64,000 bases of DNA from a virus (Duplodnaviria > Heunggongvirae > Uroviricota > Caudoviricetes). The notes under the pieces are model-generated. The model was not told the origin of the DNA and searched no databases. It saw only the letters and a list, made by a program, of their open reading frames with translations. Positions within the stretch are counted from its first letter, which is position 1. Each line of letters opens with the position of its first letter. Below are positions 3,764 through 64,000 of this stretch, one piece after another. The position numbers were made by a program, and so were the translations under genes. Location: the IMG/VR virus record IMGVR_UViG_3300005688_000042; one strand, written 5' to 3'.

Positions 3764-4785
3764 CTGAATGGTGGGAGTTTTTTCAACAATTCTATATAAG
3801 CATCTTTCTGTGGATCATTGTTTTTAACACCATCAATCCACATAGTTATCATCTCTTGAGTTGGAGGCTCAGGTTCTGGTAACTTTTCTACAACTGGCAC
3901 AAATGGGTTATATGGACAATAAAAGAATCCTTTATCCATACTGCGTTGCACTTTATAAGTAATAATACCGCCAATATCTTTTCTAGGTTCTTTTCTACTA
4001 AACTTATCTTCTAGTGCCATGATTAGGTCTGTCATATTGGCCGCATAGAACCCCGCGCTTGTGAGTGTATTCAATTCGACCACCTTGATACCATCTGGTG
4101 TGTCACAAACGTCTATCACGTATGCATCATGCGGTCGCCAATAATCTACTGAAAACGGTCCAGAAGTTAGTGATGACACAAACTTATCAAATCGATGATC
4201 AACGTCACTGGAGTAATGAACCGTCCCACCACGCTTATACATGGACTTGGTTACGATTTTATCGTCCACAACCCAGTATCTATACTCTGCGTAGATTTCC
4301 TTGACCGGGCATACTTGTATCAGTGTGTCACCATTCATAGAAGAACCATAGTCATCTCCCATAGTAATGATACTATGCTGCCATTCTGTAAGTTCTTGAT
4401 CTGTAAATACTTTTCCAGCAAATACTTTGGAATCTTCAATTGGACGTAGGAATGCTTTTCCTGTTACAATCTTAGCATCAGCAAATCTTGACACAACAGC
4501 ATCAGCATTGAGCATGTGCTTTCCCCAATGCTTCATTTGTTCATTAAAATTAACTGGTTCTAGATCGAACACACCGGGATACCAACCCTTCTTCTTAGCA
4601 ATGTGGCGCATAGAGTAAGAACCCATGCAGATCACATTGTCATCTGGACTAATGTCAGGCTCTAGCTCACCAACAAACGGCACAACCTTATGTAAAGAAT
4701 ATGGTATCTTAAACCTTTCAAAAACGTCCAGAGCGTCCCTAAATCCTTGTTCGTTAAACAAATTTTCCTGTAGTACCCAATGCAT
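3760..4785 (-). CDS. putative ATP-grasp fold enzyme
   Basis: Motifs RPIEDSKVFAGKV, EIYAEYRYWVVD and DGIKVVELNT resemble ATP-grasp ligase signatures; judged by eye only. Confidence 0.4.
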   Translation of the reverse strand: MHWVLQENLFNEQGFRDALDVFERFKIPYSLHKVVPFVGELEPDISPDDNVICMGSYSMRHIAKKKGWYPGVFDLEPVNFNEQMKHWGKHMLNADAVVSRFADAKIVTGKAFLRPIEDSKVFAGKVFTDQELTEWQHSIITMGDDYGSSMNGDTLIQVCPVKEIYAEYRYWVVDDKIVTKSMYKRGGTVHYSSDVDHRFDKFVSSLTSGPFSVDYWRPHDAYVIDVCDTPDGIKVVELNTLTSAGFYAANMTDLIMALEDKFSRKEPRKDIGGIITYKVQRSMDKGFFYCPYNPFVPVVEKLPEPEPPTQEMITMWIDGVKNNDPQKDAYIELLKKLPPFS

Positions 4786-10205: not shown

Positions 10206-11012
10206 ATGAATAAACTTACAAAGTTGTCCCTAGCAATTGCCATCTCAGCTTTCGCTGTCGGCTGTACCCGTATCGAAACTGGTGAAGTAGGCGTCCGTGT
10301 AGGATTTGATAAGCAAGTTAAAACTGATGAGCTTGTACCGGGATCATTCAATCAACATTTGATTGGTGATGTACTTACATTTCCTACGAAAGATGTTCAA
10401 GTAGAAGTTAAAGATATGACTCCGCTCGCATCCGACAATAGCACAGTAAAAGATTTTGACATGGCTGTTATTTACAGTCTAAATATTTCGCAAGTTGCAG
10501 ACATTTATATTGACAAGAATCGTAGCTTCCACGCTGTCAGTGAAGATGGAGACATTCTATTGATGTATAATTATGTTCATCAGGTTGCACGCAATGCAGC
10601 ATACAAATCTGCTCGTAAGTATGAATCACTGAAAATGAGTGATAATCGCGCATCCATTGAACAAGAGATTAAGGAAAGTATGATAGATTCTCTTGCCGCA
10701 GAAGGACTTGCCGAGTCTATTCTAATTCAACAGGTATTAGTGAAGAATATTCTTCCAGCGGACAAGATTATTGAATCTGCTAATGCTTTAGTTGAGGCTA
10801 AGAATCGCTTCTTACAAAAGGAAGTAGAAGTTGACACAGCACGCAAGGAAGCTGAGCGTATTGCAGTTTTGAACGCGAATGCTGGTGCAGTAGGTTATAT
10901 GCAGGCAACTGCCACTGTAACGATTGCAGAGGCTGTACGTGACGGTAAAGTTAATACTATTATCATTCCGATGGACTTCAAAGGGATGCTGCAAGTACCA
11001 GTGTCAAAATAA
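10206..11012 (+). CDS. SPFH/band-7-like lipoprotein
   Basis: Lipobox AVGC; RIETGEVGVRVGFDK resembles the HflK/C SPFH start. Confidence 0.4.
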   Translation: MNKLTKLSLAIAISAFAVGCTRIETGEVGVRVGFDKQVKTDELVPGSFNQHLIGDVLTFPTKDVQVEVKDMTPLASDNSTVKDFDMAVIYSLNISQVADIYIDKNRSFHAVSEDGDILLMYNYVHQVARNAAYKSARKYESLKMSDNRASIEQEIKESMIDSLAAEGLAESILIQQVLVKNILPADKIIESANALVEAKNRFLQKEVEVDTARKEAERIAVLNANAGAVGYMQATATVTIAEAVRDGKVNTIIIPMDFKGMLQVPVSK

Positions 11013-16204: not shown

Positions 16205-16516
16205 ATGAATCGTGGGCGCAGAAAAAATATTACAACAATTACTGTATCTGGTCCAGCAGGCACTGGTAAATCTATAGTCCTGTCAGAGATTCGAAAAATG
16301 TTGAAGGAAAAATTCAATATTGACGTATTACCAAATAAACATTTGGACGTTGAAGCTGAACAACTAAAAGATAAAGATTTAAAAAAATATCGGTTGAGAG
16401 GTAAGTGGGATTTGCAGGAAGAACATACACGAAGCACTCCTGACACAAACGATGCTGGTGAAAAGCTAAAAATGGGCATCTATCAGATAGAAAGTACTGG
16501 AAAAAGTTTCTTTTAA
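16205..16516 (+). CDS. small P-loop NTPase (Walker A GPAGTGKS)
   Basis: TVSGPAGTGKSIV. Confidence 0.45.
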   Translation: MNRGRRKNITTITVSGPAGTGKSIVLSEIRKMLKEKFNIDVLPNKHLDVEAEQLKDKDLKKYRLRGKWDLQEEHTRSTPDTNDAGEKLKMGIYQIESTGKSFF

Positions 16517-16534: not shown

Positions 16535-16814
16535 ATGAGTATGTCAATGCATGTTGTAGGATTAGTGCCAGTAGATGATAAATGGCGAGTGATGAAGGCT
16601 GTTTGGGACTCTTGTAAGAAATTAAACATCAAACCACCAATTGAGGTTGTTAATTTTTTTTGATGGGGAATATCCCGAAGAAGAAGAAGAGTGTATTGCC
16701 ACATCATTAAATTATGTTAGAAAATATAATGCCGATGTGTGTGAGGGATTAGAAGTAGATTTAAAACATGTATCAAAAGATGTGACAACAATTAGGTTTT
16801 ATTGTTTATGGTGA
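16535..16814 (+). pseudogene. small gene interrupted at a T8 homopolymer (16654-16661); T7 would fuse MSMSMHVVGL...IEVVNFF to DGEYPEEEEECIATSL...FYCLW
   Basis: Hand translation of both frames; frame 1 stops at TGA 16661-16663, frame 2 runs 16662-16814. Confidence 0.4.
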
Positions 16815-16823
16815 AACCAGTAG

Positions 16824-16852
16824 TTGACAGCAACACTAAATAGATGTAAGAT
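16824..16852 (+). promoter_or_regulatory. sigma70-type promoter TTGACA-gcaacACTAAATAgatg-TAAGAT (tRNA promoter family)
   Basis: 17-nt spacer; spacer carries ACTAAATA. Confidence 0.55.
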
Positions 16853-16863
16853 ACACAAATCAC

Positions 16864-16936
16864 GGGTATGCACTTTCGATGGACGATGGAATGAATACGA
16901 ATCATTCGGCTGTGGGTTCGACTCCTATCATGCCCG
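16864..16936 (+). tRNA. tRNA-Arg (anticodon ACG)
   Basis: Acceptor GGGTATG/CATGCCC, anticodon stem AATGA/TCATT with loop atACGaa; D-arm weak. Confidence 0.5.
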
Positions 16937-17088
16937 CAAAAAATTAAGAAATAGATTTAAGATGACTCAGATCGTATGTGACCTACGGTGGAATTCCCGG
17001 TTGGATGATCTATCGAACACTCATGTTAAATCTAGGGCAGTAAATGATTTAAGTACACGATTATTTACTGTCCATTAACAAAATATGT

Positions 17089-17162
17089 AGCGGTATAGCA
17101 TAATGGTAATGCATCTGACTTTGACTCAGACTATGGTGGTCCGATTCCATCTACCGCTGCCA
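17089..17162 (+). tRNA. tRNA-Gln (anticodon UUG), CCA encoded
   Basis: Acceptor AGCGGTA/TACCGCT, D-stem GCAT/ATGC, anticodon stem TCTGA/TCAGA with loop cuUUGac. Confidence 0.6.
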
Positions 17163-17880
17163 AATTATTAGATTTTTGAAATGATTTTTCTAAAATTTCT
17201 GGCATATATTTCTTCATCCATCTATTGATTTTCTGAGGTTTCTTACCAAGTAATGTGGCTAATTTTGTCACCCATCCATATTTTGTAAAATCAATATCAC
17301 AGTTTTTAATTATTTCCATATCATCTTTTATTTTTGTTGTTAGTTCTCCCGTCCTATAATTGTATATTTCTTTTCGGATTATTTCGGGTTTTATCTTTTT
17401 AGGTCTTTCTGGTTTTATCTTAACTGATCTCTTTTTGACATTTGCTCCGCAGAAGTTACTAGTCTGTGCGTGACAATTCCTACATAATAATCTTATATTT
17501 TCTAGTCGATGGTCTGTTGGATCTCCATTTATATGATCTAAATCCAATGGTATTGGTTTATCGTTCCATTCAGTTAATGAACATATAGAGCATTGATGAG
17601 AGAATATATTCTCTTTAATTAATCGCACTCTTAGTTTAGATGTTGTGTATGATGGATATTTCCCATCCAATATATCTTTTAGATTTATTTTAATGTTATT
17701 TTTCCCTATTTTATTATTTGTAAACTTATCTATATTTAAATCATATAACTTTATATAATAATTTAATGACTTATAAGAGTAATTGCTAGTAGTGTGTAAA
17801 CCTAGAAAATTAAAACACTCGGCTTTTGATGTACTGGCATTGATCGCCTCTTGTAAATCTTCTTTTGATATATAATTCAT
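17131..17880 (-). CDS. HNH homing endonuclease
   Basis: HNH motif DLDHINGDPTDHRLENIRLLCRNCH; late promoter and RBS upstream; last 32 nt overlap the tRNA-Gln 3' end on the opposite strand. Confidence 0.7.
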   Translation of the reverse strand: MNYISKEDLQEAINASTSKAECFNFLGLHTTSNYSYKSLNYYIKLYDLNIDKFTNNKIGKNNIKINLKDILDGKYPSYTTSKLRVRLIKENIFSHQCSICSLTEWNDKPIPLDLDHINGDPTDHRLENIRLLCRNCHAQTSNFCGANVKKRSVKIKPERPKKIKPEIIRKEIYNYRTGELTTKIKDDMEIIKNCDIDFTKYGWVTKLATLLGKKPQKINRWMKKYMPEILEKSFQKSNNLAAVDGIGPP

Positions 17881-17906
17881 TTTGAACCTTCTTATGTTGT
17901 TAATTG

Positions 17907-17914
17907 TATTTATA
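17907..17914 (-). promoter_or_regulatory. T4-type late promoter (TATAAATAC on the minus strand) for the HNH gene
   Basis: Plus strand reads gtatttatac; AAGAAGG RBS then ATG. Confidence 0.5.
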
Positions 17915-17955
17915 CAGATGGTTCGAATTTGTTATTTTCTAGGCAAAAACAACAG

Positions 17956-17984
17956 TTGACAAACATACTAAATAGGTGTAGTAT
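17956..17984 (+). promoter_or_regulatory. sigma70-type promoter TTGACA-aacatACTAAATAggtg-TAGTAT
   Basis: Same family as 16824. Confidence 0.55.
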
Positions 17985-17995
17985 GTATGAACAAT

Positions 17996-18071
17996 GCAAC
18001 TGTAGCTCAACTGGTAGAGCACTGGCGTGAAATGTCAGGTGTTGGAGGTTCGAAGCCTCTCGGTTGCACCA
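17996..18071 (+). tRNA. tRNA-Phe (anticodon GAA), CCA encoded
   Basis: Acceptor GCAACTG/CGGTTGC, D-stem GCTC/GAGC, anticodon loop guGAAau, T-loop TTCGAAG. Confidence 0.7.
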
Positions 18072-18086
18072 AAATTAAAGAATTAG

Positions 18087-18163
18087 GCGGGTGTGGTATA
18101 GTGGCTGTGCCCTGCGCTTCCAACGCAGAGTTTAGGTGGGTTCGATTCCCATCGCCCGCTCCA
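18087..18163 (+). tRNA. tRNA-Gly (anticodon UCC), CCA encoded
   Basis: Acceptor GCGGGTG/CGCCCGC, anticodon stem CTGCG/CGCAG with loop cuUCCaa, T-loop TTCGATT; followed by a T6 run. Confidence 0.7.
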
Positions 18164-18866
18164 ATTTTTTATATTTTCTCAAATCTAAATCTATCCCCAA
18201 CCGCTTACATCTTTTCTTAATTGCCGTGTCACTGACACCAAACTTCTCACCCAAAGACACCATTGAATGGTTTATGATCAATTCTGTCAATTCCTCTTTA
18301 GTGACGTTAAACTTTCTCATATTTTGAGTCCTGATGGCCTTTTTCTCTGCTGATTCATAGCTCTTCCGCTTGTCATTCTTCGGACGTTTGGAATTTCGAC
18401 CAGAAAATGTAGTAGTTTGGCTGTGACAGTTAGGACAAAGAAAACATAAATTTTCTAATCTATTGTCATCATTAATCCCATTAATGTGCTCTAATTGCAA
18501 GATTAATGGTTTGCCATTATGACTTCCATTATTATCACATTCAGAACATTTGTAAGCTAATAGATTATTTTCTGTTAGTATCTTTTTAATTGTTTTTCTA
18601 CTCGTCTTAGAACCAGTAACAAAAACATTGTGTATATTATGAGTACAATCTATGCGTGCTTTTCTATATTCTTTATAGTTTAATTTCATTTGTTCGGTAT
18701 TAATTGACTCCACACTGATCCTCCGTGTCAGTGTCCTATGGTTCCCGTTGTAACCATTAAATCCTAACTTCTCTAAAACTTCTACGATAGAACTACTTGT
18801 GTCTATCATGTTTTGTAAATCTTCTCTAGGTATTAACCATATTACTGACGTTCTTGGTTTTGGCAT
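18132..18866 (-). CDS. HNH homing endonuclease (start trimmed to MPKPRTS)
   Basis: LEHINGINDDNRLENLCFLCPNCH; late promoter plus AAGGAG RBS upstream of the ATG at 18866; C-terminus overlaps the tRNA-Gly 3' end. Confidence 0.65.
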   Translation of the reverse strand: MPKPRTSVIWLIPREDLQNMIDTSSSIVEVLEKLGFNGYNGNHRTLTRRISVESINTEQMKLNYKEYRKARIDCTHNIHNVFVTGSKTSRKTIKKILTENNLLAYKCSECDNNGSHNGKPLILQLEHINGINDDNRLENLCFLCPNCHSQTTTFSGRNSKRPKNDKRKSYESAEKKAIRTQNMRKFNVTKEELTELIINHSMVSLGEKFGVSDTAIKKRCKRLGIDLDLRKYKKLERAMGIEPT

Positions 18867-18885
18867 TCGAACTCTCCTTTTTAAG

Positions 18886-18893
18886 TATTTATA
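18886..18893 (-). promoter_or_regulatory. T4-type late promoter for the HNH gene
   Basis: Minus strand reads cgTATAAATActtaaaaaggagagttcgaATG. Confidence 0.55.
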
Positions 18894-18962
18894 CGAGTTC
18901 GTTGACATTATTCCTTTTTTGTGCGAACATGCCTTTACAACCTCCATAACCAAAAACCCACC

Positions 18963-20040: not shown

Positions 20041-20116
20041 GGGACGGTAGCTCAATTGGCAGAGCATTCGGCTTTTAACCGACAGGTTCCGGGATCGTTG
20101 CCCGGTCGTCCCACCA
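20041..20116 (+). tRNA. tRNA-Lys (anticodon UUU), CCA encoded
   Basis: Acceptor GGGACGG/TCGTCCC, D-stem GCTC/GAGC, anticodon loop cuUUUaa, T-stem CCGGG/CCCGG. Confidence 0.6.
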
Positions 20117-20143
20117 TTTAATTAGGCAATATCGAACCTTATG

Positions 20144-20151
20144 TATAAATA
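20144..20151 (+). promoter_or_regulatory. T4-type late promoter TATAAATA inside a 9-bp inverted repeat (AACCTTATG...CATAAGGTT)
   Basis: Read directly; 27 nt upstream of the HNH ATG. Confidence 0.5.
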
Positions 20152-20177
20152 AGAATATAACCATAAGGTTCCATAAC

Positions 20178-20810
20178 ATGAAATGTAAAAAATGTGAAGT
20201 AGATTTTATACCATCCAAGGGGTTAATAAATTATTGTTCTCTAGCATGTAGAAATACTAGGGTCTTTACTGATGAAGCCAAAATTAAAAAAGCAGACCAG
20301 AACAAGATATTTTGGAGAAATTTATCAGATTTGGAAAGGGTAGAGAGAATATCAAAAATACATACACCAACTAGAATTAAGAAAATAAAAGAAACTCTCG
20401 AAAAGAAAATTAATGAAAAACCATTTGACTCTGTATGTTTTGATGTAAAGCGGGTTAGGGTCATAAAAGAACAAGAAAATAAATGTAATTCTTGTGGTAT
20501 TTTTGAGTGGATGGGATCTCCAATCTCATTAGAGATTGACCATATTGACGGAAATAATAAGAATAATTCTAGAGATAATCTAGAGGGATTATGTCCTAAT
20601 TGTCATTCATTAACTCCGACATGGCGAGGAAGAAACACAAGAAAGGCGAAAATAAGTGATAACGAACTTATTAATAGCATAGTAAACGCTGGCAGTATAC
20701 GCCATGGTTTGTTAAATTTAAACATGTCACCAAAGGGTGACAATTATGGTAGAGCAAAAAGACTACTAGAAAATAGTGGATTAGAAATAACCAGAGGGAT
20801 AGATTCATGA
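20178..20810 (+). CDS. HNH homing endonuclease
   Basis: EIDHIDGNNKNNSRDNLEGLCPNCH; N-terminal Cys cluster. Confidence 0.7.
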   Translation: MKCKKCEVDFIPSKGLINYCSLACRNTRVFTDEAKIKKADQNKIFWRNLSDLERVERISKIHTPTRIKKIKETLEKKINEKPFDSVCFDVKRVRVIKEQENKCNSCGIFEWMGSPISLEIDHIDGNNKNNSRDNLEGLCPNCHSLTPTWRGRNTRKAKISDNELINSIVNAGSIRHGLLNLNMSPKGDNYGRAKRLLENSGLEITRGIDS

Positions 20811-21112: not shown

Positions 21113-21189
21113 ATTAGAAGACATAACAGGATATTTTTGGTACACTTGTCTGCGTTTACTATAAATAGATTTGTAGAAGAGAAAAACAA

Positions 21190-21756
21190 ATGAGAATAAA
21201 AATATCTGAATATGCAAAAATGAAAGGTGTGAGCCAGCGCACAGTATGGCGCTGGATCAAAAATAACGAACTACAAATAGAACATACACAAACTGGCAGG
21301 GTTCGCATCTTACTTGATGTCAATAAAGAGACAAAAGTCGCTGTTTATGCCCGAGTTTCGAGTACAGAAAACAAAGATAATCTTGATAGACAAAAAGATC
21401 GAGTTGTGTCTTATTGCAATGCCAAAGGATACAAAATAGAGAAGATTGTCACAGAAATTGGTTCTGGTTTAAATGACAACAGACCAAAACTTGAGTCGCT
21501 TTTAATAGATAAAGACATTGACTTGATTGTTGTGGAACACAAAGATCGATTAGCCCGTTTCGGCACCAATTACATCGAGAAATTGCTGGCTGTTTCTGAC
21601 AGAAAGATTGAGGTCATCAATCCGGTTCAGGACGAAAAAGAAGATTTAATGCAAGATTTCGTGTCACTTGTCACATCTTTTACAGCCCGGTTGTATGGAT
21701 TGCGTAGGTCCAAGCGACAGACCGAAAAGCTGATCCAATCCTTGGAAGCTGCATGA
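21190..21756 (+). CDS. tnpA: IS607-type TnpA: MerR-like HTH + serine recombinase (resolvase) domain
   Basis: KMKGVSQRTVWRW HTH; catalytic VYARVSS...RQ. Confidence 0.7.
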   Translation: MRIKISEYAKMKGVSQRTVWRWIKNNELQIEHTQTGRVRILLDVNKETKVAVYARVSSTENKDNLDRQKDRVVSYCNAKGYKIEKIVTEIGSGLNDNRPKLESLLIDKDIDLIVVEHKDRLARFGTNYIEKLLAVSDRKIEVINPVQDEKEDLMQDFVSLVTSFTARLYGLRRSKRQTEKLIQSLEAA

Positions 21757-22982
21757 AAGCTAGACGTGTAGAAAAGCATGCCATATGTCGCACAAGTCAT
21801 TATTTTAGTGACTTGTGTGATCTGACTCACAAGTCCAAAAACTTGTATAATGCATCTTTGTATGCCATTCGTCAGCATTTTTTCTCCACAAAAACATACA
21901 TCGGCTATTCAAAATTAGCTGGTGATTTCGCAAAAACTAATATAGATTACCAGCAATTACCTAGAAAAGTGTCACAACAGACCTTAAAATTGGTTGATCA
22001 AAATTTTAGATCATTCTTTGCTTTGTTGAAAGCAAAGAAAAATGACAAGGTACGTATACCAAATTACCTAGACAAATCAGGTAAATATGTGACAATTTTC
22101 ACTAATCAGGCATTATCTTTCGTTAAACCTGGATATGTAAAATTATCTGGTTATGACATCTTTATAAAGACAGAAAAAACAGATATACAACAGGTTAGAG
22201 TTGTTCCGAGAAGCAATCATTTTGATATAGAAGTGATATATTTGACAGATATAGAAGACAAAAGAAGTGACAATAGTCGTTATTTGTCCGTTGATATCGG
22301 TTTAAGTAATTTAGTAGCAACAGCGTCAAATGTCATGAAACCATTTTTAATAAATGGAAAACCATTGAAAGCTATAAACCAATATTATAATAAAAGAAAA
22401 GCAGAACTACAATCAAAATTAGGAGACAAAAGAAAGACAAGTAATAGAATCAACGCCATTTCTAGAAAAAGAAATGACAAAATTCGTGATTATTTACATA
22501 AAGCAAGTACGTGGCTTATTAATCAATTAGATTTCAACCAAATAAACACCTTAATAATCGGTGAAAATAAAGGTTGGAAACAAGAGATAAACATCGGAAA
22601 GAAAAATAATCAAAATTTTGTGTCAGTGCCATTCAATAAATTGAAACAAATGTTGACATATAAAGCCGAATCAAGAGGAATTAATGTCATTTGTCAGGAA
22701 GAGAGCTATACATCAAAGGCATCATGTTTGAGTAATGATATGATTCCGACATATGGAGAGAAGACGGATGACATGAAATTTTCTGGATATAGAAAAACCA
22801 GAGGAATTTATAAAGACAAATGTCTTGATTTAGAAATAAATGCAGATGTCAATGGCGCATATAATATTATGAGAAAAGCAGTCGGAGATGTAAAAATTGA
22901 TCCGATAGAGGCATGTAGTTGGCCCTTGTCAGTGAAAATTTCACTTGACACAAAACCTAAGTTATGTCATTATTGGCATTGA
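21753..22982 (+). CDS. tnpB: TnpB (OrfB) RuvC-like protein; C-terminal zinc finger degenerate
   Basis: RuvC-I VDIGLSN, RuvC-II IIGENKGW, RuvC-III NADVNGAYNI; both CxxC pairs lost (CLSND, CLDLE). Confidence 0.65.
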   Translation: MKARRVEKHAICRTSHYFSDLCDLTHKSKNLYNASLYAIRQHFFSTKTYIGYSKLAGDFAKTNIDYQQLPRKVSQQTLKLVDQNFRSFFALLKAKKNDKVRIPNYLDKSGKYVTIFTNQALSFVKPGYVKLSGYDIFIKTEKTDIQQVRVVPRSNHFDIEVIYLTDIEDKRSDNSRYLSVDIGLSNLVATASNVMKPFLINGKPLKAINQYYNKRKAELQSKLGDKRKTSNRINAISRKRNDKIRDYLHKASTWLINQLDFNQINTLIIGENKGWKQEINIGKKNNQNFVSVPFNKLKQMLTYKAESRGINVICQEESYTSKASCLSNDMIPTYGEKTDDMKFSGYRKTRGIYKDKCLDLEINADVNGAYNIMRKAVGDVKIDPIEACSWPLSVKISLDTKPKLCHYWH

Positions 22983-27400: not shown

Positions 27401-27479
27401 GCGGGGTTATCTTCTAACTGGCGAAGAAAATTCACTGTCGATGAATGAAATATCGGTTCGAATCCGTTTAACCCCGCCA
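27401..27479 (+). tRNA. tRNA-Asp (anticodon GUC), CCA encoded
   Basis: 7-bp acceptor, anticodon stem ATTCA/TGAAT with loop cuGUCga, T-loop TTCGAAT; D-arm register ambiguous. Confidence 0.5.
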
Positions 27480-27486
27480 TTCTTCT

Positions 27487-28296
27487 TTAAGATTTACAGA
27501 ATCTATTATGATTTCCCGCATACTGCCCGCCACATTTTTGAGAACAAAATTTCTTACGGTCAGAAGTAACTTTAAACTCTGTACCACAATTAGCACATCC
27601 CTTAAATTCAATTACGACATCATCATATAATTCAAAAAATCTGTTTCGGTGTAATCCAGTCTTGTTTTCAACATATTCAAATATCTCTTGTAAATCTTGT
27701 TTATATTTTATGGTCACCAAACCGTTTGTTCCTGATAATTTGTAAGTGTCTATATTTCTAAAATAATTCTTTATTTCTATGATTTTACCATTGACTAAAA
27801 AGTCGGGAAAAAATTTGAAGTGGTCATTGCGATCAGGGTCATAATAGTCGAAATATTTTCCATATCTTTCAATATTATTACCGTGATCTAAGTTGTATAT
27901 TACAAAAGCTAATTCATAAGTAGAATCGCAATATATGCCTTGGTATTTTCCAGACTTACCTCTGGTAGAGCCTAGACGAACGCCTCCCATTTTTACACCA
28001 TCATATAATCCGTTTTTCCAATAATTGATTGTCAATTGTGATCTTGCTTTATGGTAACATTCATCAGAACACGTTTTTCTATATCGCCGATGTTGATATT
28101 GCGCGTTACAGATTATGCATGTTATTATTTTAAGTGATCTGCTTAGTTTATGGTTTTCAGACATTTTTCGTTTTGTTTCTTCACTATGTTTTCTTCTACT
28201 GTTATTATATGAAGCGGCACACGATTGATTACAGAATTTACTTCTTGAGTCATTTGTGGTAAACTCTTTACTACAGTATAAACATGTTTTAATCAT
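27487..28296 (-). CDS. putative PD-(D/E)xK-type endonuclease with three Cys4 zinc ribbons (candidate homing endonuclease)
   Basis: CLYCSKEF...CNQSC, CIICNAQ...CSDEC, CANCGTEF...CSQKC; core YCDSTYE...FFPDF...EIK. Confidence 0.4.
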   Translation of the reverse strand: MIKTCLYCSKEFTTNDSRSKFCNQSCAASYNNSRRKHSEETKRKMSENHKLSRSLKIITCIICNAQYQHRRYRKTCSDECYHKARSQLTINYWKNGLYDGVKMGGVRLGSTRGKSGKYQGIYCDSTYELAFVIYNLDHGNNIERYGKYFDYYDPDRNDHFKFFPDFLVNGKIIEIKNYFRNIDTYKLSGTNGLVTIKYKQDLQEIFEYVENKTGLHRNRFFELYDDVVIEFKGCANCGTEFKVTSDRKKFCSQKCGGQYAGNHNRFCKS

Positions 28297-35570: not shown

Positions 35571-35615
35571 CGCGTATTTTTAAAATCCGTATAAATAGAT
35601 GTAAAGGATTGAAAA

Positions 35616-35774
35616 ATGATGATAAAATTAGTAGATTTCGCAAAGACGCAAGGTGTATGTTACAGAACAGCTTACAATTGGTTCCACCTTGGCTACATCG
35701 AAGGTGCATACCAAACGGCATCACGCACTATATTGGTGCCGAAAGACGCCAAAGTTAAGAGAAAAAGCGAATAA
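35616..35774 (+). CDS. truncated IS607 TnpA: MerR-like HTH only (52 aa)
   Basis: Hand translation MMIKLVDFAKTQGVCYRTAYNWFHLGYIEG... parallels the TnpA N-termini of copies 1 and 3; no resolvase domain; AAAGGA RBS. Confidence 0.45.
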   Translation: MMIKLVDFAKTQGVCYRTAYNWFHLGYIEGAYQTASRTILVPKDAKVKRKSE

Positions 35775-35781
35775 AATCGCC

Positions 35782-36891
35782 GTGAATCTTGCCCACAAAA
35801 TTCAGTTAAAACCCAACAAAGAACAGAAGCAGATGCTGGCGCGAGCCGCAGGCTGCGCCAGATTCACTTACAATTGGGCTTTGGCCGAATGGAATAAGCA
35901 ATATATGGCAGGCGAGAAACCGTCAGCATTAAAATTGAAAAAGCAATTCAATTCCATTAAAAAGCAGGAATTTCCATGGATATACGATTCACCAAAAGAT
36001 GCAAATCAACAACCATTTACAAATTTACAAAGTGCTTTCAAAGGTTTCTTCGACAAACGAACCGCGTATCCGCAGTTTAAGAAAAAGTACAAACGCGATT
36101 CATTTTATGTCTCAAACGATCAATTTCACATAACTGATAATATGATTAAACTTCCACTAATTGGAAAAATTAAATTGGAAGAGACATTGAGATTTGAAGG
36201 TAAGATCATGTCTGCTGTGGTCAGTCGAAAAGCTGATAAATGGTTTATATCAATTGCGGTAGAGATGAATGATTATGGTAAAGCTAGAACATCAGATAAC
36301 ACCATAGCAATTGATTTTGGCATCAAAACTTTCGCGGTTGATCAAAATGGCGCATCTTTCGATGCACCAAAACCATTGAAAAACAAGCTTCAAAAGCTGA
36401 AAAGGTATCAGAGAATTTGTTCAAAGAGAAAAGATGGAAGTCAAAACAAAAAGAAACAAAGATGTAAAGTAGCAAAAATACATAAAGAAATCAGTGACTT
36501 ACGTCACGATTTCACACACAAATTTACAACTCAAATCTGTCGCGAAAACCAAACGATAATTATAGAAGATTTGAATTTGAAAAGCTGGAGCAAAATGTTT
36601 GGGAAGTCAGGAATTGATGGTGGCGTGGGCGAAGCCCGACGCCAACTCAAATACAAGTCATTGATTTATAACAACAATTTAGTTGTAATAGATAAATGGG
36701 CACCGACTTCCAAATCATGTTCTAGTTGTGGTAGCTATAAATCAGACTTGAAATTGAGTGATCGAATCTTCTGCTGTACGGATTGTGGTCATAAAATGGA
36801 CAGAGATTGGAATGCTGCCAAAAATATTTATGTCTCAGGAATGAGACAACTAGGGATGGCTTGTCCCGAAGTTACGCCTTTGGACATCTGA
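35782..36891 (+). CDS. tnpB: TnpB (OrfB), apparently intact; probable GTG start
   Basis: RuvC-I IDFGIKT, RuvC-II IIIEDLN, zinc finger CSSCGS...CTDCGH, RuvC-III DRDWNAAKNI; no in-frame ATG after the HTH ORF stop. Confidence 0.6.
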   Translation: MNLAHKIQLKPNKEQKQMLARAAGCARFTYNWALAEWNKQYMAGEKPSALKLKKQFNSIKKQEFPWIYDSPKDANQQPFTNLQSAFKGFFDKRTAYPQFKKKYKRDSFYVSNDQFHITDNMIKLPLIGKIKLEETLRFEGKIMSAVVSRKADKWFISIAVEMNDYGKARTSDNTIAIDFGIKTFAVDQNGASFDAPKPLKNKLQKLKRYQRICSKRKDGSQNKKKQRCKVAKIHKEISDLRHDFTHKFTTQICRENQTIIIEDLNLKSWSKMFGKSGIDGGVGEARRQLKYKSLIYNNNLVVIDKWAPTSKSCSSCGSYKSDLKLSDRIFCCTDCGHKMDRDWNAAKNIYVSGMRQLGMACPEVTPLDI

Positions 36892-52094: not shown

Positions 52095-52156
52095 TTCCGA
52101 AAATTAGCACAAATAATATCATCTGCTATAAATAGATATATGAAAGGTGATATTAC

Positions 52157-52735
52157 ATGAAACTTCGACAATGGGCAAATAAACAAGGGATTTCCTACTT
52201 GACAGCGCTTCGCTGGTTCAAGGCAGGTAAAATTCCAAATTCAACTCAATTCCCATCTGGCACCATCATAATACAAGATGAGCTGCCTGTCAACACGGAT
52301 GAAAATAAATCAGTACATATCTATGCCAGAGTTTCTTCACATGAGAAGAAAGATGATCTAACCAGACAAGCCCAAAGATGTGTTGAATTTGCTAATGCCA
52401 ATGGATACGAAATAATCTCAGTTACAAAAGAAATTGCTTCTGGCATGAATGATAAGCGACCAAAATTAATTAAATTGATTGAACAGAAACCAAAACATAT
52501 CATTGTTGAGCACAAGGACAGATTGACCAGATTTGGATTCAATTACTTTGATTTATTACTTCCTATGATTGGTTGTAAATTAACTGTTATGAATAGAGAT
52601 CAAGAAGAGCATGCGGATTTAATGAAAGATTTAGTTTCTGTTATTACATCATTTTGTTGTAAATTATATGGTCTGCGCAGAGCGCAGAACAAGAAACAAA
52701 AGATCCAACAAATATTGGAAGACGAAAATGTTTAA
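52157..52735 (+). CDS. tnpA: IS607-type TnpA serine recombinase with MerR-like HTH
   Basis: NKQGISYLTALRWF HTH; IYARVSS...RQ. Confidence 0.7.
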   Translation: MKLRQWANKQGISYLTALRWFKAGKIPNSTQFPSGTIIIQDELPVNTDENKSVHIYARVSSHEKKDDLTRQAQRCVEFANANGYEIISVTKEIASGMNDKRPKLIKLIEQKPKHIIVEHKDRLTRFGFNYFDLLLPMIGCKLTVMNRDQEEHADLMKDLVSVITSFCCKLYGLRRAQNKKQKIQQILEDENV

Positions 52736-53783
52736 AAGAGCTATTAAGTTGAAATCATATGCAACAGAAGCAAAGCAAAATAAAGTCCTTGCTTTGATTA
52801 GTCGCTATAGATGTCAAGTTAATATGTTTATAGATTACATCTGGAACAACAAAGAAACAGCAAAATTAGATGCTAAAACATTGAAATCTATAGATAAAGT
52901 TCAAGATTTATCCGAAAGATATAAATCCAATGCATTGAAACAGGCACTTCAAATTTGTAAAAGCGAAAAGAACAAATCCAAACCAGATTTCAATGGTTAT
53001 CCGGTGCTAGATGCAAAGTTCGTGTCTATTGACACGAACAAATCTTCAAAAGAATTTGATTTGTGGATAAAATTATCAACATTGAAATCTGGAAGACGAA
53101 TAGAAATACCAACAAAGAAGCATGCACATTTAAACAAATGGCTTAAAACTGGTACATTGATACAAGGCTGTGAGCTTCGCCCAGACGGTTTCATCGTCTG
53201 GGTAGAGGCGAACCCACCTGAAAAGAAAAATAGCTTGAAGGTCGGTGTAGACATCGGAATGAACAAGCTATTGACCACTAGCTATGGTGAAAAATTAGGA
53301 ACTGATTTTAATCGAATCAATGATAAAATTCTAAGGAAGAAAAAGAACAGTAAGAATTACAAAAGAGCCATAGCAGAAAAGAAAAACTATATAAATCAAT
53401 CAGTTAACTTGCTTCCGTGGACAGAAATGGAAGTGCTTTGCTATGAAAACATTAAAAATTTGAAGAAAGGAAGTACAAAAAGAAATAAACAAACAAGACA
53501 AAAACAGCAACATTGGAGCTATAGACAAGTTATAGAAGCTATGAAAATGAAGGCCCAAGCTAACCGTGTTAGCTTGGTCTATGTTAATCCGGCTTACACT
53601 TCTCAGAAATGTTCCGCTTGTGGTAATATTGCTGCATCCAGTCGATATCTAGAAAATTATTGTTGCATCAGTTGCGGTCATACACAAGACGCAGATGTAA
53701 ATGCAGCAAAAAATATTCTACACAAAGGACTAGACTGGATAACGAGCTTAGAGTCCGTTAAGTCAAAAAGTGCTATCATATGA
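52728..53783 (+). CDS. tnpB: TnpB (OrfB), intact RuvC motifs and zinc finger (start trimmed to MFKRAIKL, ATGTTTAA overlap)
   Basis: VDIGMNK, YENIKNL, YTSQKCSACG...CISCGH, DADVNAAKNI. Confidence 0.7.
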   Translation: MFKRAIKLKSYATEAKQNKVLALISRYRCQVNMFIDYIWNNKETAKLDAKTLKSIDKVQDLSERYKSNALKQALQICKSEKNKSKPDFNGYPVLDAKFVSIDTNKSSKEFDLWIKLSTLKSGRRIEIPTKKHAHLNKWLKTGTLIQGCELRPDGFIVWVEANPPEKKNSLKVGVDIGMNKLLTTSYGEKLGTDFNRINDKILRKKKNSKNYKRAIAEKKNYINQSVNLLPWTEMEVLCYENIKNLKKGSTKRNKQTRQKQQHWSYRQVIEAMKMKAQANRVSLVYVNPAYTSQKCSACGNIAASSRYLENYCCISCGHTQDADVNAAKNILHKGLDWITSLESVKSKSAII

Positions 53784-58352: not shown

Positions 58353-58425
58353 GCCTCGGTAGCTTAGTGGCCTAAAGCGACTTTCTCTAAAATTGTGATC
58401 GTGAGTTCAAATCTCACCCGAGGCG
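58353..58425 (+). tRNA. tRNA with anticodon CUA (amber-suppressor-like); anticodon stem has two U-U mismatches
   Basis: Acceptor GCCTCGG/CCGAGGC disc G, D GCTT/AAGC, loop cuCUAaa, T-arm GTGAG-TTCAAAT-CTCAC; alternative registers pair worse. Confidence 0.4.
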
Positions 58426-58433
58426 ATATAATC

Positions 58434-59057
58434 ATGTTCCGTTTCCTTGTAAAAGTTCCTAACAAAGTCGGGGTTGCATTTTCCGGTGGAGTCGATTCAT
58501 TGGCTATCGCACATTTCCTGAAAAAGGGAAATAAGGAAGTCACCCTATACCATTTTAACCATCTATGTCAATACTCGGCAGACATTGAGTATAAATGTTG
58601 TCGTCTGGCTGATAGACTCAGAATGCCTATTGTTCTGGCTAGTTATCATGGACAACGTGAGAAGGGACAATCCCTTGAAGACGCATGGCGTAGAGCTAGG
58701 TATCGTTTTCTTAGATCATGTGATCAACAGATTATCACTGGTCATCATATCGATGATGCCGTAGAAACGTGGGTGTGGTCTTCATTACATGGTGAAGGTA
58801 AGTTGATCCCTGTAACTTCTGGTAACATCATCCGTCCGTTTTTGACAACAGAAAAATCAGTTTTCGAAAATCATTGTAAAATCAATAAGTTAGATGTTGT
58901 TGAAGATGAAATGAACAAAGATTTACATCTAATGCGCAATTATATGAGAGCAAATATGATGCAACACATCTATCATATTAATCCGGGATTACGGAAAGTA
59001 ATCAAGAAAAAATACATAAATATGATTAATATTCCAGAATTAGAAGATGACAGTTAA
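58434..59057 (+). CDS. PP-loop ATPase, tRNA(Ile)-lysidine synthetase (TilS)-like; 3' end replaced by the downstream insertion
   Basis: SGGVDS PP-loop; start trimmed to MFRF to clear the tRNA; C-terminal 45 aa duplicated at 60720-60833. Confidence 0.55.
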   Translation: MFRFLVKVPNKVGVAFSGGVDSLAIAHFLKKGNKEVTLYHFNHLCQYSADIEYKCCRLADRLRMPIVLASYHGQREKGQSLEDAWRRARYRFLRSCDQQIITGHHIDDAVETWVWSSLHGEGKLIPVTSGNIIRPFLTTEKSVFENHCKINKLDVVEDEMNKDLHLMRNYMRANMMQHIYHINPGLRKVIKKKYINMINIPELEDDS

Positions 59058-60720
59058 AGAAGAACTACGAGAGATATTCAAACAAAAAAACTGGCCGGGA
59101 TGGTTAGCTAGGAATAGACCACTATTGTTGGCTGAATTAAAACGATTAACTAATTTTGTTCCTGAAGATTTTCCTTTGGTTGTAAGAGCATGGCACATAA
59201 CGAACGAAGTATTCACAATACCAAAATGTGCTCTGTGCGATCAAGTTGTTTTTCTTCGAAAAAAGCAAAACACATACAGTGACTATTGTAGAGAATGTGC
59301 AAGAAAGGTAGAACAACAGAATAGAGAAAAAGCGGTATTGAAAAAATATGGAACCCGCCAGATTTTATCTGTTGGTAGTATTCGCGAAAGTATCAAAAAA
59401 ACTAATTTGAAAAAATATGGCGTAGAATTTGTATCTCAATCTAAAATAATACGAGATAAAATAGAGAATACGGTTAAAGAAAAATATGGAGTATCCAACC
59501 CTTCGCAAGCCGATAGTGTTAAGCAAAAGAAAATTATTAAGTCAATGAAAGTCTACGGTGTTGCTAATCCTCTGATGGTAGATGAAATAAAGGATAAGAT
59601 CAAAGAAACAAATAAAGAAAAATATGGCACGCAAAATGCTATGCAATCTGATAAGATTAAAAATAAAAATAAAGCGACTTGTTTACAAAAATATGGTGTT
59701 GAATTTCATGTGCAAAAAAATCTATCTAACGAAGCATTAGAGGTTTTAAATTCAAAAGATATATTGATTGATATGCATCATAACAAAAAGATGACACAGG
59801 GGGAAATAGCCAAAATCATCGATGTTACTCAAACTACTGTATCTAATTATTGTTTTAAGCATAACATAGAAGTTAAACATTACTTCAGATCTGCTGGAGA
59901 AAAAGAGCTTTTCGATTTTGTGCTATCATCATTTCCAAACGCGATTCCCAACTATAGAAAAATAGCAGGCGTAGAGTTGGATTGCTTCATACCAGATATA
60001 TCATTAGCGATAGAATATAATGGAGTATATTGGCATAGTGAAAAAGTTGGTAAGACACAAAACTTTCATGCTGACAAATATAATTTATGTAAAGATAATG
60101 GAATACGACTAATAACAATCTTCGAAAATGAGTGGACTGAAAAAAATGATTTAGTAAAATTAAAATTATTAAACATATTCGGAAAATCACAAGAACGTAA
60201 GATATTCGCAAGAAAAACTACAATCTGTGAGGTATCTACAAAAGATAAGAATAATTTTTTTGATTTGTACCATATACAAGAATCTGGCCCATCGTCCATA
60301 AATTTTGGCTTAATGAGTGACAATGATTTAGTTGCATGTATGGGTTTCATTAAGTACAATGATTATTATGTTTTGAATAGATACGCATCCTCATGTAATG
60401 TTGTTGGCGGATTTACCAAATTGTTAACACATTTTGAAAACAAATTTGATAAACCTAAGATAGTGACATTTGCAGACTTAAGATGGTCGGGAGGAGATTT
60501 ATATCACAATTCAAAATTTAAGCTTGACAGTGTGCTTGAACCTGATTATAGTTGGGTTAAAGATGGAAAGGTTTGGCATAAATTTAGTTGGAGACATACT
60601 TCCGGTCTTAAAAAATTACAAAATTATGACCCAAACAAATCAGAGATAGAAAACATGCATGCTCATGGATTCTATCGCTTATGGGACTGTGGTAAGCTGC
60701 GGTTCGTAAAAAACACTTGA
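59047..60720 (+). CDS. homing-endonuclease-like protein: Zn ribbon + six KYG-type homing-endonuclease-associated repeats + Vsr/DUF559-like PD-(D/E)xK nuclease + C-terminal domain
   Basis: Repeats KYGTRQ, KYGVEFVSQ, KYGVSNPSQ, VYGVANPLM, KYGTQNAMQ, KYGVEFHVQ; nuclease motif VELDCFIPDISLAIEYNGVYWH. Confidence 0.55.
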   Translation: MTVKEELREIFKQKNWPGWLARNRPLLLAELKRLTNFVPEDFPLVVRAWHITNEVFTIPKCALCDQVVFLRKKQNTYSDYCRECARKVEQQNREKAVLKKYGTRQILSVGSIRESIKKTNLKKYGVEFVSQSKIIRDKIENTVKEKYGVSNPSQADSVKQKKIIKSMKVYGVANPLMVDEIKDKIKETNKEKYGTQNAMQSDKIKNKNKATCLQKYGVEFHVQKNLSNEALEVLNSKDILIDMHHNKKMTQGEIAKIIDVTQTTVSNYCFKHNIEVKHYFRSAGEKELFDFVLSSFPNAIPNYRKIAGVELDCFIPDISLAIEYNGVYWHSEKVGKTQNFHADKYNLCKDNGIRLITIFENEWTEKNDLVKLKLLNIFGKSQERKIFARKTTICEVSTKDKNNFFDLYHIQESGPSSINFGLMSDNDLVACMGFIKYNDYYVLNRYASSCNVVGGFTKLLTHFENKFDKPKIVTFADLRWSGGDLYHNSKFKLDSVLEPDYSWVKDGKVWHKFSWRHTSGLKKLQNYDPNKSEIENMHAHGFYRLWDCGKLRFVKNT

Positions 60721-63594: not shown

Positions 63595-63670
63595 GGCCCG
63601 GAAGCTTATTCGGTCAAGCAGCAAACTCATAATTTGAAGAAAATGGGTTCGAATCCCATACGGGCCACCA
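63595..63670 (+). tRNA. tRNA with anticodon CAU (Met, or Ile2 if lysidinylated), CCA encoded
   Basis: Acceptor GGCCCGG/ACGGGCC (one mismatch), D GCTT/AAGC, loop cuCAUaa, T-arm ATGGG-TTCGAAT-CCCAT. Confidence 0.55.
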
Positions 63671-63694
63671 ACTTAAACACTCTATTTTAAATCA

Positions 63695-63702
63695 TATAAA
63701 TA
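63695..63702 (+). promoter_or_regulatory. T4-type late promoter TATAAATA for the downstream HNH gene
   Basis: caTATAAATActtc 35 nt before the ATG. Confidence 0.5.
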
Positions 63703-63736
63703 CTTCTGTAGGTCAGAAATTACAGGAGAATTAACA

Positions 63737-64000
63737 TGACAGATTTACTACGAGAAAGGGATATAAACGGGTACAGAGGGATATATAAGCCAGATTGGCC
63801 AACTGCGTATACTTCTAACAATTGGAAGGGATTCGTTTACGAACATCGTTACTTAATGGAACGCGAAATGGGTCGCTCTCTAAGAGATGATGAGATTGTT
63901 CATCACCTTGACGGGAATAGATACAACAATAGAATTTCCAATTTAGTCGTATTATCAAACTCAGCATCACATATGAGATTGCATTACTGGATCGACTCTG
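63737..64000 (+). CDS. HNH homing endonuclease (partial, runs off window end)
   Basis: EIVHHLDGNRYNNRISNLVVLSNSASH; directly downstream of tRNA(CAU). Confidence 0.6.

Follow-up and report, generated by a model that had tools for sequence, protein, structure and literature searches.

HegA-type HNH endonuclease genes abutting tRNA genes in a T4-like phage

We have analyzed a 64,000-nucleotide (nt) stretch of tailed phage DNA (Caudoviricetes; IMG/VR record IMGVR_UViG_3300005688_000042), hereafter the window, in which genes for HNH endonucleases lie directly against tRNA genes. The window, with a G+C content of 36.7%, has three copies of TnpB, several genes for nucleases and nine for tRNAs; the rIIA, rIIB and RNA ligase 1 homologues that it encodes indicate that its source is a T4-like phage. 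The tRNA genes were called with ARAGORN, and the Rfam tRNA model confirmed four of them: tRNA-Gln(UUG) (17089–17162, + strand; 66.6 bits in Rfam), with an encoded CCA and a T loop, TCCGATT, that has C at position 55; tRNA-Phe(GAA) (17996–18071, +); tRNA-Gly(UCC) (18087–18163, +), with an encoded CCA and a canonical T loop; and tRNA-Lys(UUU) (20041–20116, +), with the unusual T loop ATCGTTG. Two nuclease genes on the opposite strand run into the first and third of these: HNH1 (17131–17880, −; 249 amino acids, TAG stop) into tRNA-Gln and HNH2 (18132–18866, −; 244 amino acids, TAA stop) into tRNA-Gly. HNH3 (20178–20810, +; 210 amino acids) belongs to the same family and is found 61 nt downstream of tRNA-Lys on the same strand, between this tRNA and a 101-amino acid open reading frame (ORF) at 20807. 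Far away, 65 nt downstream of tRNA-Met (63595–63670, +) and again on the same strand, the window end cuts a fourth gene, HNH4 (63736–64000, +), of which we see the N-terminal part; it is of the HNH_3 type and of a different PHROG family. The original prediction, made by a model from the letters and their reading frames, had proposed four HNH genes beside tRNAs, and all four do match HNH families, the last one starting at 63736 and not at 63737.

The PHROG HNH families 10822/14736 matched HNH1–3 with E values from 1e-24 to 1e-38. BLASTP to T5 HegA gave E values of 6e-19 (HNH1), 4e-16 (HNH2) and 1e-20 (HNH3), and by these matches the three proteins can be taken as homologues of phage T5 HegA, at an identity to T5 HegA-type enzymes of only 28–45%. 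Among themselves the three paralogues share 29–50% identity in local alignments, those that involve HNH3 covering only 46–70 residues round the HNH core. The Pfam HNH and HNH_3 matches of HNH1–3 were near or below the cut-off, that of HNH4 to HNH_3 had an E value of 5e-11, and neither the domain-library nor the PHROG searches found a GIY-YIG match in HNH1–3. Homologues in T4-like phages carry a TflIV-like annotation. The domains of all three proteins are a helical one at the N terminus, a zinc-bound HNH core and a helix-turn-helix at the C terminus, and the CxxC...H-N-H...CxxC residues are unchanged across the homologues compared (in HNH2 numbering C110, H127, N139, C144, N146, C147 and H148 are invariant, with equivalents in HNH1). 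The AlphaFold model of HNH2, with an overall predicted local distance difference test score (pLDDT) of 82, places a beta-beta-alpha element at residues 124–148; a Foldseek search with this model returned non-significant domain-level matches only (McrA, Cap5 and Gme HNH), and a profile search of the PDB sequences found nothing. The ratio of nonsynonymous to synonymous substitution rates (dN/dS) against orthologues was 0.15–0.20 for HNH1 and 0.10–0.13 for HNH2, at saturated synonymous divergence (dS >1.4), indicating that these are working genes.

The overlap between HNH1 and tRNA-Gln is exactly 32 nt (17131–17162), and so is that between HNH2 and tRNA-Gly (18132–18163). In both cases it spans the CCA, the discriminator, the 3′ acceptor strand and the entire T arm, so that the original prediction had the length right but misplaced the stop codon, which falls in the variable loop and not inside the T arm. 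It was also right in that the closing residues GIGPP and GIEPT are encoded by tRNA sequence: the last 10 residues of HNH1 (ending LAAVDGIGPP) and HNH2 (ending LERAMGIEPT) are antisense to tRNA-Gln and tRNA-Gly, respectively. However, comparison with relatives does not support the suggestion that the shared 32-nt overlap or these tails are meaningful. Four relatives of HNH1 (59, 57, 49 and ~46% identity) end 83, 13, 35 and 13 nt inside an opposite-strand tRNA-Gln (UUG or CUG), and four of HNH2 (72, 68, 56 and 43% identity) end 29, 30, 22 and 47 nt inside an opposite-strand tRNA-Gly(UCC). The frame and the tail residues differ among orthologues, e.g., the HNH2 orthologue of the relative L095 enters tRNA-Gly in another frame and has the tail QIGAVDGT, and where no tRNA is convergent, members of the family end a few residues past the same conserved C-terminal motif. 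In the HNH2 model the confidence of the tail falls below ~52 (pLDDT of 51 for residues 231–240 and 42 for 241–244). The antisense strand of tRNA genes is poor in stops: among 471 tRNAs the median read-in before a stop was 51 nt, 36% of the entries met no stop at all, and the chance of a stop at 30–34 nt was ~6% per entry frame. We take the identical 32 nt in HNH1 and HNH2 to be a coincidence. Since overlap length, frame and tails vary and antisense tRNA has few stops, we read the overlap as a by-product of insertion without a spacer, and we conclude that what is conserved is the zero-spacer juxtaposition of a functional C-terminus with the 3′ boundary of a tRNA, the overlap itself being passive.

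A megablast of the region against GenBank phages gave no match and a distant blastn gave short matches to the HNH core only. Therefore, with no close relative among GenBank phages, the relatives were taken from metagenome and IMG/VR contigs (L-numbered here; L011 is a 315-kb IMG/VR contig). Several metagenome assemblies hold sequence identical to the window, and for the second flanking gene (16205–16516) IMG/VR had no relatives. Insertion-free tRNA islands were available for comparison in L095 and L011, both without HNH1, and in L095 for HNH3. The window has HNH1 intact and L092 has it in decayed form, whereas L095 and L011 lack it. In L011 the array is a compact Arg-Gln-Phe-Gly series behind the same sigma-70 promoter, with a gap of only 14 nt between Gln and Phe, and after tRNA-Gly, at the site of HNH2, there is a GIY-YIG+NUMOD3 gene with its own TATAAATA. 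L095 has a small zinc-ribbon ORF at the HNH1 site, keeps the HNH2 orthologue and goes directly from tRNA-Lys to an ORF starting MNYNIKD, the homologue of ORF 20807. By these comparisons HNH1 and HNH3 are optional cassettes. The spacer ATTATTAGA beside tRNA-Gln is common to HNH1-bearing and HNH1-free alleles, which puts the junction of the HNH1 cassette ~13 nt outside the tRNA, the last ~14 codons of HNH1 being flank plus antisense tRNA.

The identities along the array are mosaic. Against L095, the window has 98.6% identity in tRNA-Gln and 97.4% in tRNA-Phe, versus 64% in tRNA-Gly and 65% in HNH2; against L092 the values are 51% (tRNA-Gln), 52% (tRNA-Phe), 95% (tRNA-Gly) and 71% (HNH2). This pattern indicates recombination at the conserved 15-nt spacer between Phe and Gly, with tRNA-Gly travelling together with HNH2. 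A check for co-conversion, comparing 5′ and 3′ halves of the tRNAs between the window and L011, gave a weak hint for tRNA-Gly only (82 vs. 57%). Two irregular tRNA copies turned up in the same contigs. In the JGI contig L008, an 84-nt duplication of the tRNA-Gly 3′ end was considered as a homing footprint and rejected: it is an N-filled scaffold join (10755–10787) with a duplicated 51-nt tRNA-Gly 3′ end, i.e., a scaffolding artefact. L092 has, ~270 nt past tRNA-Lys(ctt), a fused copy of the first ~20 and the last ~25 nt of this tRNA (3900–4330, −), which could be the footprint of an insertion, deletion or amplification at a tRNA gene.

A survey with the family profile yielded 78 unique IMG/VR loci. 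A tRNA lies at most 100 nt from the ORF in 61 of the 78, and in 38 it is within 20 nt of the stop codon or overlaps it. The overlapped tRNA is on the same strand in 11 loci; another 10 are convergent, and seven of these 10 overlap. Among the adjacent tRNAs, tRNA-Gln is enriched (31/90 vs. 20/245; odds ratio 5.9, p = 2.5e-8). Annotated homologues are located in tRNA arrays of the T4-like phage ACG-C40, Gordonia phage GodonK, Bacillus phage Chewbecca, Enterococcus phage 113, Agrobacterium phage Atu_ph07 and a 595-kb uncultured phage; in this last phage the gene is separated by 2 nt from the preceding tRNA-Glu and by 1 nt from the following tRNA-Gln. Clustering by single linkage at 40% identity was uninformative, as it merged nearly the whole family, and clades were set at identities of at least 60% (thresholds of 50–60% were used). 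At 60% or more, clades keep one partner tRNA and one geometry: tRNA-Leu(tag) has one clade just on its 5′ side and tRNA-Leu(taa) one at 82 nt on its 3′ side, two clades converge on tRNA-Leu(caa), and one converges on tRNA-Gln and overlaps it, the partners across clades being Gln, Gly, Leu-tag, Leu-taa and Leu-caa. All relatives of HNH1 that were found are convergent on tRNA-Gln and all those of HNH2 are on tRNA-Gly, so that the tie to tRNA genes is systematic and the check named in the original prediction, a search for orthologues at other loci, did not refute it.

Each of the four HNH genes has the late promoter motif TATAAATA on its coding strand, 26–33 nt upstream of the start codon (17907, 18886, 20144 and 63695), as had been predicted. 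The window contains 17 copies of the motif against 9.0 ± 2.6 expected, a number reached by none of 100 shuffled sequences, and correct placement at four out of four genes is far beyond chance (~0.008 per gene by simple arithmetic). The promoters are associated with predicted hairpins. That of HNH1 (17874–17929, −; folding free energy, dG, −8.0 kcal/mol, z −2.2) has TATAAATA (17907–17914) in its loop, and UUCGAACC (17920–17929) pairs with GGUUC of the ribosome-binding site plus the HNH1 start codon; this upstream region is conserved in L092. For HNH2, the hairpin CGAACUC/GAGUUCG (18868–18901, −; dG −8.9 kcal/mol, z −1.4) is weak, flanks TATAAATA (18886–18893) and abuts the ribosome-binding site and AUG. 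The hairpin of HNH3 (20130–20175, +; dG −13.0 kcal/mol, z −3.2) encloses TATAAATA (20144–20151), sequesters the ribosome-binding site and uses AUCGAACC as its arm, the same arm as in HNH1, and that of HNH4 (63692–63739 with its promoter, +; TATAAATA at 63695–63702; dG −11.8 kcal/mol, z −3.2) likewise sequesters the ribosome-binding site. An equivalent hairpin precedes the GIY-YIG gene of L011 (z −3.5).

As a separate observation, TATAAATA is also present before the pair of IS607-type serine recombinase and TnpB (21190–22982; region 21160–22982), before a second TnpB (35653–36891; region 35590–36891) and before ORF 52157, which is upstream of the third TnpB (52668–53783; region 52127–53783), so that mobile-element genes of this phage generally seem to be under late promoters.

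The tRNA genes themselves follow promoters of another kind. A sigma-70-type promoter, TTGACA-N17-TAAGAT (16824–16852, +), heads the array, and an identical one heads the Arg-Gln-Phe-Gly array of L011. A second copy (17956–17984, +) lies in a repeat with 77% identity to 16814–16848, and L011 has none between Gln and Phe; this copy would let tRNA-Phe and tRNA-Gly be transcribed again beyond the antisense insert. Altogether, successive tRNA blocks are preceded by three near-identical promoters (16824, 17956 and 19697; +) of the type TTGACA-N17-TA(A/G)(G/T)AT, the spacer of which contains ACTAAATAG. Given that L011 has one promoter for its whole Arg-Gln-Phe-Gly array and the window three, the promoter copies appear to have spread together with the inserts.

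We consider it probable that HNH1–3 encode homing endonucleases of the T5 HegA type, a family specialized in phage tRNA arrays, and that these free-standing genes are each carried as a cassette immediately 3′ of one tRNA gene, with a passive overlap and with expression by the scheme known from T4. What we observe is the family membership, the intact catalytic residues, the purifying selection, the presence/absence polymorphism, the recurrent association with tRNAs and the anatomy of hairpin and promoter; from these sequence features we infer cleavage specificity, homing itself and late timing. The enzyme would recognize tRNA-gene DNA and cut at or near the 3′ boundary of the cassette-free allele in a co-infecting relative, and repair from the cassette-bearing genome would copy the cassette in, probably with adjacent tRNA sequence. 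HNH1 and HNH2 would have been inserted antisense and without a spacer, the functional coding sequence ending at the tRNA boundary, and translation would run on through the stop-poor antisense tRNA to the first stop, which is in the variable loop for both, leaving the 10-residue tails as passive appendages. With TATAAATA inside or just upstream of the hairpin, only late transcripts that start inside the hairpin would be translatable, and the duplicated sigma-70 promoters would keep the tRNAs downstream of the antisense inserts expressed.

Several points weigh against this interpretation. The gp55 and gp33 genes were not seen in the window, and late promoter use is an assumption made from the consensus alone; for HNH1 (z −2.2) and HNH2 (z −1.4) the hairpins exceed shuffled sequence by a small margin only; a clade of nine loci lacks any adjacent tRNA; and the constant partner tRNA within clades could in part reflect shared descent of the host phages and not target specificity. 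In addition, none of the 10 loci of the HNH1 and HNH2 clades with known context has a stop before the tRNA, despite saturated synonymous divergence, and a neutral tail alone does not obviously predict this lack. A functional protein that reaches the tRNA boundary would explain the absence of earlier stops. The same observation could be taken to mean that the overlap is selected, either because the 3′ half of the tRNA becomes part of the mobile unit and the cassette is shielded from precise deletion, or because an mRNA 3′ end antisense to a tRNA is regulatory, by pairing with the (pre-)tRNA or by processing upstream of the stop to give a non-stop mRNA, with effects on the nuclease or on the tRNA. 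Overlaps also occur in independent clades, on tRNA-Gln (L032, L035–L037 and L070; 20–26 nt) and on tRNA-Leu(caa) (52–56 nt), tRNA-Gly co-varies with the HNH2 lineage, and a processing-based control has been proposed for segB and tRNA-Arg in T4 (PMC2330249). Nevertheless, we regard selection for the overlap as quite unlikely, with its length, frame and tail sequence not conserved, with convergent relatives whose stop is 1–46 nt outside the tRNA (Atu_ph07, L173, L181 and L169), with most family members on the same strand as the tRNA and with nothing tRNA-like on the antisense strand in an Rfam scan.

A different origin of the cassette was suggested by the T-loop-like 9-mer ggttcgaat at the far end of HNH1, described in the original prediction as an orphan T loop. 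The motif is present (17921–17929), but its reading as a T-loop remnant fails: it is the 5′ arm of the hairpin that hides the Shine-Dalgarno sequence, and it recurs before HNH3 and, as CGAACTC, before HNH2, pairing with the ribosome-binding site. That the cassette entered as an integrative element in a tRNA gene and brought a replacement 3′ end, the 9-mer being a remnant like an attachment (att) site, is therefore highly improbable and was rejected; the 9-mer is followed by nothing that resembles the T stem or the acceptor strand of tRNA-Gln, no integrase was found adjacent to the cassette, the 3′ half of the tRNA is not repeated at both ends, and the cassette-free L095 shares ATTATTAGA, so that the junction is ~13 nt outside the tRNA. 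The T loop of tRNA-Gln raises the question of immunity. The sole difference between tRNA-Gln in the window and that of L095, which lacks HNH1, is a T-to-C change at the near-invariant position 55 (GGTCCGATTCC), and TCC is also found in the tRNA-Gly overlapped by an HNH2 relative in L102. The change might protect the cassette-bearing allele, as SegB requires GGTTCRANTCC and I-BmoI, as cited in PMC2330249, discriminates intron-containing from intronless alleles by a single base. We nevertheless find an immunity mutation unlikely, because it is based on one observation, because the other overlapped tRNAs have TTC and because tRNAs adjacent to HNH genes do not in general have mutated T loops (canonical loops in 68/77 vs. 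217/258, the odd ones not being enriched). Exact-pattern scans of IMG/VR and the JGI metagenomes for the tRNA-Gln 3′ half, with T or C at position 55, found nothing. The odd T loop of tRNA-Lys, ATCGTTG, in which positions 54 and 58 are swapped with respect to the canonical T...A, is the same with and without HNH3: the gene is identical in L095, indicating that this loop is not linked to the nuclease.

The nucleases could also be retained for a benefit to the phage, through exchange or segmental amplification of tRNA genes against host defences that target tRNAs, as SegB does in T6. Purifying selection acts on the HNH genes, intact copies persist in diverged relatives, and several paralogues and other nucleases are gathered in one tRNA-rich region; tRNA genes are amplified by SegB, whose linkage to tRNAs is widespread (PMC13096335), and among the coding genes of tRNA arrays none are more widespread than HNH genes, which have also been implicated in tRNA repertoire diversity (PMC5966550, PMC6409571). 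On the other hand, the window has no tandem amplification of tRNA genes, HNH1 is decayed in L092 and dispensable in L095 and L011, and a benefit of this kind would be compatible with homing and not exclusive of it; we hold it to be a minor chance as the reason for retention. Returning to homing cassettes as the preferred explanation, a bolder version can be put forward tentatively. Each HegA-type lineage may be specific for the gene of a single tRNA isoacceptor, at its 3′ boundary (Gln, Gly(UCC) or Leu(UAG/UAA/CAA)), and, with a coding sequence that extends into the tRNA, would carry the tRNA 3′ half or the whole allele along in homing. In that case tRNA genes would be universal landing pads, and homology arms, by which one cassette could pass between otherwise unrelated phages; tRNA alleles would be actively reshuffled by the cassettes, and U55C-like changes in the T loop could be immunity marks.

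The HNH genes described here are a known theme and no new kind of system. The HNH enzymes of the T5 tRNA region, F-TflI/II/IV, were described by Akulenko et al. (2004, as cited in PMC2330249). The T5 Heg enzymes share with HNH1–3 the HNH core, the C-terminal helix-turn-helix and the location in a tRNA array beside individual tRNA genes. However, in T5 the overlaps with tRNA genes, 23 nt for hegD and 14 nt for hegC, are on the same strand and at the tRNA 5′ ends (hegA is also in the tRNA region), whereas here two of the three genes are antisense and end in the 3′ half of the tRNA, and HNH1–3 have late promoters of the T4 type. T4 SegB is a GIY-YIG homing endonuclease encoded in a tRNA cluster that recognizes GGTTCRANTCC, cuts tRNA genes at their 3′ ends, often directly behind CCAR, and drives the inheritance of the tRNA region; the stop codon of segB abuts tRNA-Arg, and a translational hairpin has been proposed (PMC2330249). 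Linkage to tRNAs is widespread among the homologues of SegB, and they can amplify tRNAs against defences that cleave these (PMC13096335). SegB is, like the genes studied here, free-standing within a tRNA array, and it cuts at the very sites occupied by the HNH cassettes, but its fold is GIY-YIG, it is on the same strand as the tRNAs and it is co-transcribed from a middle promoter, so that HNH1–3 would be SegB-like in their way of working and are not members; a SegB-like GIY-YIG gene is what occupies the HNH2 site in L011. Read-through transcripts of I-TevI, I-TevII, I-TevIII and MobE cannot be translated and late transcripts that start inside the hairpin are (PMC2330249). With TATAAATA within a hairpin or immediately upstream of it, and the Shine-Dalgarno sequence or the start codon occluded by this hairpin, the arrangement resembles that of these I-Tev genes and Aeh1 MobE, with the difference that here it is deduced from sequence alone and two of the four hairpins are weak. 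In mycobacteriophages and mycobacteria, HNH genes in tRNA arrays have been proposed to spread or diversify tRNA sets (PMC5966550, PMC6409571); these are reports on gene content, in which we did not find clade-specific tRNA partners, insertion geometry or antisense overlap. The descriptive additions that we did not find in the literature searched are the antisense orientation with the stop inside a tRNA and the constant partner tRNA within clades.

The value of this locus is that intact, decayed, empty and alternatively occupied states are found across relatives, providing an example of how homing endonuclease genes colonize tRNA arrays. Clades that keep one partner tRNA suggest that the target specificity of an enzyme could be read from its genome context, in this case the 3′ boundaries of tRNA-Gln and tRNA-Gly. 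There is also a warning for annotation, since ORFs that enter opposite-strand tRNA genes can be real, and they may be lost in pipelines that bar overlaps between coding sequences and tRNAs. In the JGI record L008, whose DNA is identical, HNH1 is missing from the gene list; our guess is that the tRNA overlap was the cause.

Several other features of the region deserve mention. A divergent tRNA-Arg(ACG)-like gene (16864–16936, +), missed by ARAGORN and scoring 28.9 bits in Rfam against a gathering score of 29, has the same position as tRNA-Arg(acg) in L011, L097 and L099, indicating that the listed ORF 16824–17078 is spurious. The ~150 nt between it and tRNA-Gln (16937–17088), not found in L011, contain a second copy of the promoter −10 region (16949–16963) and a small inverted repeat, and have no Rfam match. 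A fifth, free-standing nuclease-like ORF, overlooked in the original prediction (27487–28296, −; 269 amino acids), is convergent with tRNA-Asp (27403–27479), its stop codon being 7 nt from the tRNA 3′ end. Its sequence includes zinc ribbons at both termini, a weak match to NUMOD3 and the motif PDF...IEIK, which hints at a PD-(D/E)xK nuclease, and the sequence upstream, GATAAATACTTAAAAAGGA, is similar to the leader of HNH2. TAG stops are rare in the window (6 of 113 ORFs in a crude gene set, HNH1 among the few), and an amber-suppressor-type tRNA with the anticodon CUA is found at 58353–58425 (+); read-through of TAG would carry HNH1 across the entire antisense tRNA-Gln. The listed GTG start (58395) of a PP-loop ATPase gene falls within this suppressor tRNA and is probably wrong, and downstream of the ATPase gene there is a 557-amino acid DUF7487 / PHROG 3339 “homing endonuclease” (59047–60720, +).

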